In this document: piece after piece, positions 16,299 to 17,883 of the stretch
How positions within the stretch are numbered: position 1 is the first letter of the stretch
Layout of the letters: the number at the start of each line of letters is the position of its first letter
Sequence record: OL770073.2
Source of the DNA: Escherichia phage vB_EcoM-RPN226
Length of the DNA stretch: 64,000 bases
Reading direction: 5' to 3' (one strand)
The notes under the pieces: model-generated
What the model was told of the DNA's origin: nothing
The model's input: the letters and a program-made list of their open reading frames with translations, nothing else
The model's database searches: none
Made by a program: the position numbers and the translations under genes

Positions 16299-17069
16299 TT
16301 AATCCATGAAATCATTATCAAATGGGCTAGATTCGAAAGATTTGCCTCTATTATTGACAACAACGTAAGGTTCAACATATTCTTTAGCTTCAGAATTAAT
16401 TTGATCTACTTCAGCATACTGATCAATATTAATATCATGAATGCCATTAAGATTGCGAACAGGATTTAATTCTAATTCACTAAATTCTGGAATGTTAATT
16501 CCTTCATTTTTCTGTAGAACTGGATTAATTTCTTCTCCAGAATAAATGAATTTACCTGCTGTAATTTTACGAATAGCATTTTGGCCTAATTGATAAAATG
16601 GATCATATGGTTCAACCCAGTTAATTTCGAATAAGCTGTTATCCATAGGAAAATATATTAAATCGCCTTCCTTAGGTTCTTTTCCATTTACTTGGTGTTT
16701 AAACAAGTTTGGATTAATTGACAAAGTAACTTCATCCTGTACTTGCATACCAAAATTACTAAAGAACGATTTAGCTCCTTCATATCCTTCGAATGAATTT
16801 AAATATGCAGCGAATTTCCAAGCTTTAGTAAATTTATTTTTTAAGTCTTCGCCAAATATCAAATCAGGGGAAACATACTCTCTTGGAACATAATAGCATT
16901 CTACACCTCGCATTTGAATGCTTTCAGCCACTAATACATCAGCTAATATTTGGCTGTTTTTATAATGATTGAAATTTACGTAAGGATTTAATATTTCAGT
17001 TTCATTAGTCTGAGAATAACCAGTGTGGTTTTCCAATTTAGCAAAGAGATTTTTATCGTAAGTAGCCAT
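16299..17069 (-). CDS. 14: neck protein gp14
   Basis: ORF track gives 267 aa; start at MATYDK (17067-17069) gives 256 aa as in T4 and leaves 1 nt to the upstream HNH stop. Confidence 0.8.
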
Positions 17070-17070
17070 A

Positions 17071-17883
17071 TTATTCGACCTTCTTAAATTTGCAATTGTC
17101 AAAATGGTATCTTTTAGCGTGAGACTTATCCATGATTTTAGAACAATGCGGGCATTTTAATTTTTCTCTGCTATGAGATACACCCGTGATAACTTTGCAT
17201 TTATCGCCGTGGTATTTTCCATAATTTCCTACATCACATATAATTCCACAATGTGGACAATTTCTTTTTTCGACTTTTGCAAGACCCTTAGATAGTTTAT
17301 TTAAATACTTTTCGTATTTTTGGGGGTCGCTTTTAAGCTCAAACCAAAAATCTTTCATTTGTTTAGAACATCTTTCTTTATATTCTAACATTTCGTTTTC
17401 TGACAGCGATTCTAAATATTTCACAGAAGCTTTTTGAATATTTGCATTAACTTCTTTTCTCTTTTCATCTGTCCATAAAGATTTAGTTTTTTTAATACCT
17501 TTTCCAGCTTTTTTAATTCGTTCCTTCTTTAAATTTGGTGGTAGATTTGCCCAAAACTTTTTAGTGGTTTCTGATCTAATTTTGGACGTTTCCTCTTTAA
17601 TCCATCCGTAATCTTTACTTACAATTCTCTGTTCTTTTGTACCCTTGGAGAATTTTATTAAGGCATAAGCCATTTCAGAATTTCGGTGTATTTTAAAAAG
17701 AAGCTCATGCGCAAAATAATGTTCTCTTGCTGTCAGTAAAACCTTATTTTCTCTAGAGTCATCTCCTCCCATAGATTTTGGGACAATATGGTGTGATTCC
17801 GTATAATAATCTAATTTTTTCTTATTGAGACCTCTTTTAAGAGATCTTTCTATAAGAGAGTTGTAAATTTTAGTATAATTCAT
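17071..17883 (-). CDS. HNH homing endonuclease inserted between genes 13 and 14
   Basis: HNH motif [31 protein letters not shown]; C-terminal paired CPHC zinc-finger motifs; start codon overlaps gene 13 stop (ATGA). Confidence 0.75.

Follow-up and report, generated by a model that had tools for sequence, protein, structure and literature searches.

A probable MobE-family HNH homing endonuclease gene at the junction of neck genes 13 and 14 in Tequatrovirus

Between neck genes 13 and 14 of Escherichia phage vB_EcoM-RPN226 lies a gene that is, with high probability, a free-standing HNH homing endonuclease gene of the MobE family, homing in the manner proposed below. It is an optional insertion of 810 bp and forms a discrete cassette with the recoded final 21 nt of gene 13. 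The gene was found in a window of 64,000 nucleotides, meaning the whole stretch of DNA analyzed here (sequence record OL770073.2), which on its sequence is the minus-strand late-gene region of a Tequatrovirus (a T4/T6-like phage).

As a gene, it is ordinary and is already annotated as a homing endonuclease in T6 and about 45 other records. The new details are the linked-tail cassette, the ATG and GGGAG that the cassette creates, and the Shine-Dalgarno sequence that it supplies to gene 14. The main value of the analysis is correct annotation, along with a further case of a Mob-type gene that sits in a T-even genome and leaves its neighbors undisturbed. With T6 as a carrier, T4 and T2 as non-carriers, and a clean cassette of eight substitutions in 21 nt, the site is a convenient natural test case. 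It bears on two questions that were open in a 2010 review: the homing of Mob nicking enzymes and the translation of free-standing endonuclease genes (PMC2988022). The searchable literature holds no enzymatic or genetic test, cross data, or cleavage site for this protein. No paper on an endonuclease at the 13/14 junction turned up in a literature search that covered only a minority of the subscription journals.

Location and junctions of the gene

The program-made ORF list contains a minus-strand ORF of 270 aa plus stop at 17071-17883, beginning with ATG and carrying two CPHC motifs (Table 1). The preliminary description had reported a 270-aa HNH protein with these motifs, and this is borne out by the ORF list, Pfam HNH_4, and PHROG 655. 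It had also described an ATGA overlap with the gene 13 stop and a 1-nt gap to the gene 14 ATG, and both are seen in the junction sequence. At the 5' junction, GGATGA, the ATG of the HNH ORF (17883-17881) overlaps the TGA of gene 13 (17882-17880), resulting in a 4-nt overlap (ATGA, 17883-17880). At the 3' junction, TAA-T-ATG, the TAA of the HNH ORF (17073-17071) is followed by one T (17070) and the ATG of gene 14 (17069-17067). The earlier start coordinate of 17067 needs correction: it is where the gene 14 ATG ends, and positions 17067-17070 are composed of gene 14 sequence and the 1-nt spacer. The gene 14 start is the ATG at 17069 (MATYDKNLF...), in agreement with T4 gp14; the entry in the ORF list begins at a TTG at 17102.

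Table 1. Positions of the HNH ORF, its parts, and the neighboring genes in the window
Feature	Position	Strand	Basis or remark
Gene 17	13120-14952	-	identity to T4
Gene 16	14936-15430	-	identity to T4
Gene 15	15439-16257	-	identity to T4
Gene 14, neck protein / head closure, downstream host gene	16299-17069	-	99% aa identity to T4 gp14
Probable free-standing HNH homing endonuclease gene, MobE family, 270 aa	17071-17883	-	Pfam, PHROG, MobE similarity
Two tandem C-x2-C-x12-H-x3-C (CCHC) zinc-finger-like modules, residues ~204-270	17074-17274	-	
Shine-Dalgarno-like GAAGG for gene 14, within last HNH ORF codons	17079-17083	-	
N-terminal HNH (beta-beta-alpha-metal) nuclease domain, residues 1-80	17644-17883	-	invariant residues and AlphaFold
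Recoded final 21 nt of gene 13, GTGGGAGTGTTAGTTGGATGA, VGVLVG*	17880-17900	-	left end of insert
Gene 13, neck protein / head-tail adaptor, upstream host gene	17880-18809	-	98% aa identity to T4 gp13
Shine-Dalgarno-like GGGAG for HNH ORF, within gene 13 coding sequence	17894-17898	-	
wac	18842-20299	-	identity to T4
Gene 12	20309-21859	-	identity to T4

Distribution among T4-like phages

In the phage collection, the empty T4-type 13/14 junction was found in 458 of the 514 matching records, and the full arrangement of gene 13, ORF, and gene 14 was found in 46 of 504, where both 46 and 458 count records, GenBank/RefSeq duplicates included, and not independent phages. The same 46 records give protein identity of at least 95%. 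Carriers are thus approximately 9% of related records, and approximately 91% are without the gene. T6 is among the carriers, and its RefSeq label there is 'homing endonuclease'. In T4, the gene 13 stop is followed by 1 nt and the gene 14 ATG. The T4-like empty junction is also found in T2, RB68, G29, pSs-1, Shfl2, REP3, Nami, and three IMG/VR genomes, and genes 13 and 14 are adjacent in every more distant T4-like genome sampled. Presence of the gene is polymorphic within a species, with G9062 having the gene and G29 lacking it. A scan of IMG/VR with gp14 returned only 15 loci, with one further carrier, and the comparison is therefore based on the phage collection. The preliminary description had read the gene as an insertion with no spare intergenic DNA and had proposed a synteny comparison of the 13/14 junction in relatives. 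The comparison yields the 458 empty and 46 occupied records given above, and the empty junctions together with the junction sequence of the window support an insertion of this kind.

The ORF is frameshifted in at least three phages (SHFML-26, F1, and FN), so not all copies are active. In SHFML-26 and F1, one A is lost from an A7 run and the ORF is split; FN gives the same one-base-shorter match. The loss from the A7 run is either decay or a homopolymer sequencing error.

Two carrier records have peculiarities of their own. G9062 (L029, locus ~300-1126) has approximately 55 extra nt in gene 14 compared to all others and is annotated with a truncated 558-nt CDS, which could be an assembly artifact or a real disruption of an essential gene. 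LR597660, recorded as 'T4_ev151' (L040), was considered as a case of laboratory homing into T4. This was rejected, as the flanks are only 85-98% identical to T4. Though named as evolved T4, this record is 95% identical to the window over 11.9 kb and is not T4-derived there.

The cassette and the recoded end of gene 13

Twelve carriers were compared with 11 non-carriers. In the final 21 nt of gene 13, eight substitutions show perfect linkage to the insert (12 HEG+ versus 11 HEG-). The empty-site allele of the gene 13 tail is TTTGGAATTTTGGTAGGTTAA, and the carrier allele is GTGGGAGTGTTAGTTGGATGA. The carrier consensus reads CC[G/A]GTGGGAGTGTTAGTTGGATGA (PVGVLVG*), and the non-carrier consensus reads CCATTTGGAATTTT[G/T]GT[A/G]GGTTAA. 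A search with 33 nt of the recoded tail, free of any endonuclease sequence, retrieved exactly 46 records, the same number as the gene itself.

The linkage ends abruptly on both sides. At the 146 other variable sites in gene 13, the frequency difference between carriers and non-carriers is never above 0.5, and the single difference of 0.5 is at -22, adjoining the recoded block. In gene 14, the difference stays at or below 0.41 at all 58 variable sites of the first 400 nt. The flanks are equally diverse at the nucleotide level whether carriers are compared with carriers, non-carriers with non-carriers, or one class with the other. Between the classes, the 21-nt block differs by 0.385. Because linkage is confined to these 21 nt and the flanks are undifferentiated, the unit is a cassette with sharp boundaries, made up of 21 recoded nt and a further 810 nt, against a background that recombines freely. 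A co-conversion tract is not seen past 21 nt to the left and 0 nt to the right. Recent homing is expected to leave such a tract unless it was very short or was erased by later recombination.

The substitutions install expression signals. The change of GGT TAA to GGA TGA creates the ATG of the HNH ORF. The changes of TTT to GTG and ATT to GTG (F303V and I305V) create GGGAG at -15..-11. At the other end, the final codons of the cassette, AAG AAG GTC GAA TAA, put GAAGG in place of the ribosome-binding site native to gene 14. The origin of the recoded gene 13 tail was sought in the distant T4-like loci L008-L018, and the tail is absent from them.

Protein family and domain architecture

The 270-aa protein is matched by Pfam HNH_4 at 25.7 bits (cut-off 22, E 1.1e-5). 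The PF01844 HNH model gives 17.9 bits, under its cut-off of 21.4. PHROG 655, 'homing endonuclease', is matched at 1.7e-52 across residues 1-267, and proteins with 97-99.6% identity in T6, sutha, CrRp10, and others are annotated as 'homing endonuclease'. Among 47 homologues, Y3, Y7, E29, H31, H32, G40, N46, T51, E54, H55, H59, and L62 are invariant in the N-terminal domain, and these include the catalytic residues H31/H32, N46, and H55/H59. In the C-terminal module, C244, C247, H260, and C264 are invariant among the same homologues.

An AlphaFold model built on the 47-homologue alignment has a mean pLDDT of 90.6. The predicted beta-beta-alpha core is composed of strands 28-32 and 47-51 and helix 52-66, with a pLDDT of 93-97. 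Residues 90-203 are modeled as a long helical linker, and each C-x2-C-x12-H-x3-C module is modeled as a small beta-beta-alpha unit. Fold searches with the whole model gave weak results, which is no surprise for a protein that is extended and has several domains, and the recognizable matches are HNH domains and C2H2 finger arrays. The weak HNH structural matches include Cas8-HNH, the GVE2 HNH, McrA, and the Gme nicking HNH. With a curated HNH model matched above threshold and a conserved His...Asn...His on a beta-beta-alpha core, the protein is assigned by sequence and by predicted structure to the HNH (beta-beta-alpha-metal) nuclease superfamily. Its N-terminal homology and its free-standing, variably present gene place it in the T4 Mob type (MobE group, PHROG 655).

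The CCHC modules are presumed to be the DNA-binding domain. The isolated linker and finger regions matched no Pfam family at the gathering threshold, and Pfam detected no NUMOD domain in the 270-aa protein; NUMOD3 modules are present in many homologues. The CCHC finger module, which is common to MobE, is without a Pfam family and without a solved structure among the matches.

Comparison with MobE and other endonucleases

T4 MobE is the closest characterized relative. BLASTP gives 43% identity over the first 111 aa (E 4e-24). Full-length MobE can be aligned to the window protein as far as the first finger, in 247 columns that include the CCHC finger, with 33% identity overall. MobE is a free-standing HNH homing endonuclease encoded between nrdA and nrdB (Wilson & Edgell 2009, PMC2790892). 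The mobE gene and six other free-standing endonuclease genes of T4 are promoterless passengers (PMC2988022, PMC2790892). Full-length mobE is tightly packed as well: the nrdA stop and the mobE ATG overlap (TAATGA), as do the mobE TGA and the nrdB ATG. Translational coupling has already been proposed for mobE from this stop/start overlap, UAAUGA (PMC2988022).

The likeness covers sequence and setting. Both proteins belong to PHROG 655, begin with an identical MNY, and contain a C-terminal CPHC...H..(D/N)(N/K)CKFK finger. Both genes are free-standing between two conserved genes with a start that overlaps the upstream stop. The promoterless passenger state has been shown for MobE and is likely for the 13/14 ORF. 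Differences are also evident. MobE is found among the early/middle nrd genes, whereas the window ORF is found in the late neck genes 13 and 14, so its expected timing is late. The window protein has two CCHC fingers versus one, a longer helical linker, and 270 versus 232 aa. An internal intrinsic terminator of the kind found in mobE is not evident in the window ORF, where there is only a weak 5-bp palindrome.

Within the codons of the first CPHC finger, a 13-nt palindrome, TCCACATTGTGGA (17245-17257, both strands), forms a weak terminator-like site, much weaker than the terminator described inside mobE.

The T4 record itself has a discrepancy. One T4 assembly (OZ209057) has a single 232-aa ORF annotated as phrog 655. 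The T4 reference (NC_000866 139716-140416; L038 3717-4417; compare L039 301-999) has a 141-aa mobE and an 83-aa nrdB.1 in different frames, and nrdB.1 contains the C-terminal finger of the family, CPHCGK...WHYDKCKFK. From the sequence, the two reference genes appear to be a full-length mobE split by a frameshift (or by a sequencing error).

The T4 mobA-D and segA-G cassettes resemble the window cassette in being optional, intergenic, and beside essential genes (Edgell, Gibb & Belfort 2010, PMC2988022). Promoters are lacking from many of them, several share an overlap with the upstream ORF, and several hold expression signals of the downstream host gene, favoring retention (PMC2988022). In the T4 cassettes, the embedded signal is usually a promoter, whereas in the window cassette it is the gene 14 Shine-Dalgarno sequence. 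Unlike those cassettes, the window cassette also rewrites the last seven codons of the essential upstream gene 13. I-HmuI and I-TevIII likewise join an HNH catalytic domain to an extended modular DNA-binding region, but they are intron-encoded and the window gene is not. I-HmuI is absent among the matches of the sequence and fold searches with the window protein.

Relatives at the same site in divergent lineages

The closest non-identical homologues, at 51-56% identity, are all located between genes 13 and 14. Three divergent T4-like contigs (L035, L036, and L037) carry a 13/14 homologue, and their gp14 is approximately 70% identical to that of the window. L036 has the same ATGA and TAA-T-ATG junctions as the window. 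In L035 and L037, the endonuclease ORF follows an unrecoded gene 13 tail after a 9-nt spacer, and there is no overlap. Recoding is therefore not a general requirement for self-immunity in the lineage. Taken together, the junction sequences indicate that the 13/14 endonucleases are a site-specific lineage in which overlap and recoding are found only on some branches.

In L036 (~1040-1070), the endonuclease ORF ends with AAA TTA GTG GGG TAA T ATG (KLVG*), which resembles the native gene 13 tail TTG GTA GGT TAA T ATG (ILVG*). The window has a weaker echo of that tail, GTC GAA TAA T ATG, at 17071-17085. The L036 ending may have been left behind when the element originally integrated within the tail of gene 13; the similarity is too short for statistics.

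The metagenomic T4-like contig L035 contains, besides its 13/14 ORF, a second ORF with HNH and CCHC-finger domains (198 aa, 1621-2217) between genes 14 and 15. Endonucleases of this HNH and CCHC family appear to have a hot spot in the neck-gene cluster.

Transcription and translation

Genes 13 and 14 and the HNH ORF share a strand. The exact late promoter TATAAATA is absent on the minus strand between 25218, a position just upstream of a 288-aa ORF (24320-25186), and 13124. No MotA-type middle promoter is found in 16200-19000, and no strong terminator is found between gene 13 and the HNH ORF. The sole strong hairpin is upstream of gene 13, in the wac/gene 13 intergenic sequence (GGGGCCGCAAGGCCCC, 18839-18822, minus strand).

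Other promoter candidates were rejected. One-mismatch variants of TATAAATA inside the ORF (17382 and 17305), considered as a promoter of its own, are no more than expected in AT-rich DNA. Sigma-70-like promoters are at shuffle level, with 17 matches versus 13.7 +/- 4.2 in shuffles.

In the 32-nt spacer of wac and gene 13, the GGGGCCGCAAGGCCCC element forms a GC hairpin with a T-rich run after it, and it has a terminator annotation in phage NR1. Because there is no consensus late promoter downstream of the hairpin, genes 13-17 presumably depend on read-through past it.

The lack of a nearby promoter agrees with the seven promoterless T4 endonuclease cassettes (PMC2988022), and for this reason the best reading, which is well supported by sequence and by analogy, is that the gene would be transcribed as a passenger on the late neck/terminase message.

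For translation, the predicted duplex with the 3' end of 16S rRNA is -7.1 kcal/mol for the GGGAG of the HNH ORF and -5.4 kcal/mol for gene 13. The predicted duplex for gene 14 is -5.9 kcal/mol with GAAGG versus -6.2 kcal/mol with the native T4 site, and the site of the HNH ORF is predicted to pair at least as strongly as those of both neck genes. RNA structure at the gene 14 start is not significant (z 1.40 versus shuffles). An RNA structure that sequesters the start, as in I-TevI, was rejected, with the -60..+50 fold at -15.8 kcal/mol and a z of 0.41 versus shuffles.

The stop and start overlap (ATGA, 17883-17880) in the way of translationally coupled pairs, and coupling of the HNH ORF to gene 13 is plausible from this arrangement. 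The cassette-encoded Shine-Dalgarno sequence, the spacer-containing relatives L035 and L037, and the lack of a masking structure argue that coupling would not be obligatory. The preliminary description had proposed that translation is likely coupled to late structural gene expression. Late co-expression holds up as a well-supported reading, with the gene on the same strand and no late or middle promoter consensus nearby, whereas translational coupling is plausible only and is partly contradicted by the gene's own GGGAG and the 9-nt spacers of L035 and L037.

Selection and alternative explanations

Diversity was estimated from 10 carriers with intact copies, using the same 10 phages for insert and flanks. 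The pS of the insert is 0.070 over the whole ORF, compared to 0.205 for gene 13 and 0.186 for gene 14, so that synonymous diversity is approximately 3-fold lower in the insert than in its flanks. The lower pS indicates that the insert is younger than the flanks, having a more recent common ancestor. The pN/pS is 0.08 for the ORF as a whole and 0.02 for the zinc fingers only, and the insert is under purifying selection. Low pS, undifferentiated flanks, and occurrence in four T4-like lineages make up a population signature of horizontal spread into a fixed site.

These values bear on whether the gene is still a homing endonuclease gene. A former homing endonuclease, now stranded or domesticated and kept for the gene 13 end and the gene 14 ribosome-binding site, would be consistent with flanks that have no co-conversion signal and with the frameshifted copies in SHFML-26, F1, and FN, and the embedded gene 14 Shine-Dalgarno sequence would penalize its deletion. 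Such a remnant is nonetheless unlikely. Retention of a ribosome-binding site alone would not constrain coding to the pN/pS found over the whole ORF and in the fingers, the catalytic residues are all intact, and the 3-fold lower synonymous diversity compared to the flanks indicates recent spread into diverged backgrounds.

Purifying selection could also act on a nuclease that serves the phage, either as a weapon against co-infecting relatives (localized marker exclusion) or against host or satellite DNA, with expression timed to packaging. The Seg and Mob endonucleases of T4 cause localized marker exclusion (PMC2988022), and HEG-derived genes have been co-opted for anti-parasite defense in ICP1 (PMC10448857). 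This is very improbable here, however, as approximately 91% of close relatives are without the gene and the insertion site is strictly conserved across lineages, which points to a target at the gene's own locus and thus to homing, with exclusion as a by-product. A role in packaging, like that of the terminase-assisting HNH proteins of HK97-like cos phages, is suggested by position only: the gene is part of the late block of head, neck, and terminase genes, with gene 16 three genes downstream, and terminase genes 16 and 17 follow 1.6-4 kb downstream on the same strand. A gene of the HK97 gp74 type would be expected beside the terminase genes and, being required for packaging, in all relatives, and the window gene does not belong with these terminase-associated genes. 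Genes 14 and 15 separate it from gene 16, it is absent from T4, T2, and the 458 records that package normally, and its product is a Mob/PHROG 655 member with a tail presumed to bind DNA site-specifically. A packaging function is accordingly the least credible of all and close to negligible.

Proposed mechanism of homing

As a free-standing homing endonuclease gene, the ORF would work as follows. By analogy with MobE, the promoterless gene would be carried on the late polycistronic message of genes 13-17. Translation would begin at the ATG that overlaps the gene 13 stop, via the GGGAG that the cassette writes into the gene 13 end, and re-initiation by ribosomes terminating on gene 13 may be an additional route. 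When a carrier and a phage lacking the gene infect together, the CCHC fingers and helical linker would bind the uninterrupted 13/14 junction of the latter, and the HNH domain would nick or cut close to the bound junction. Recombinational repair from the carrier genome would then copy the cassette in. The candidate target is the T4-type junction CCTCCATTTGGAATTTTGGTAGGTTAATATGGCTACTTA. The uninterrupted junction encodes the highly conserved C-terminus of gp13 and N-terminus of gp14. The carrier's own genome would be immune, with the site split by the insert and, in Tequatrovirus, the left half also recoded. The gene 14 ribosome-binding site in the end codons of the cassette would preserve neck-gene expression and disfavor simple deletion.

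A more speculative extension is that the 13/14 endonucleases are a specialized lineage of seamless cassettes that rewrite the gene 13 end to make a translation start for themselves and supply the gene 14 ribosome-binding site, with the L036 ending as a hint that the element first integrated a few codons within gene 13, duplicating the tail. This is tentative and somewhat doubtful. If true, seamless cassettes would be hard to delete, endonuclease dosage would be tied to late neck-gene translation, and the insert could alter the ratio of gp13 to gp14 synthesis in carriers.

Other endonuclease genes in the window

The window contains two further ORFs with endonuclease matches. A 503-aa ORF at 2916-4427 (+) matches PHROG 3339 'homing endonuclease' (2e-142) and the PHROG 559 HNH endonuclease. 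It is antisense and is located between gene 24 (1558-2841) and gene 23 (4478-6043), the slot that holds the much smaller segD in T4. Three TATAAATA late-promoter motifs (2869-2934, minus strand) are found at the 5' edge of this ORF. A 221-aa ORF at 40354-41019 (+) matches PHROG 314 'homing endonuclease', with weaker matches to GIY-YIG families, and is probably a Seg-type endonuclease gene.
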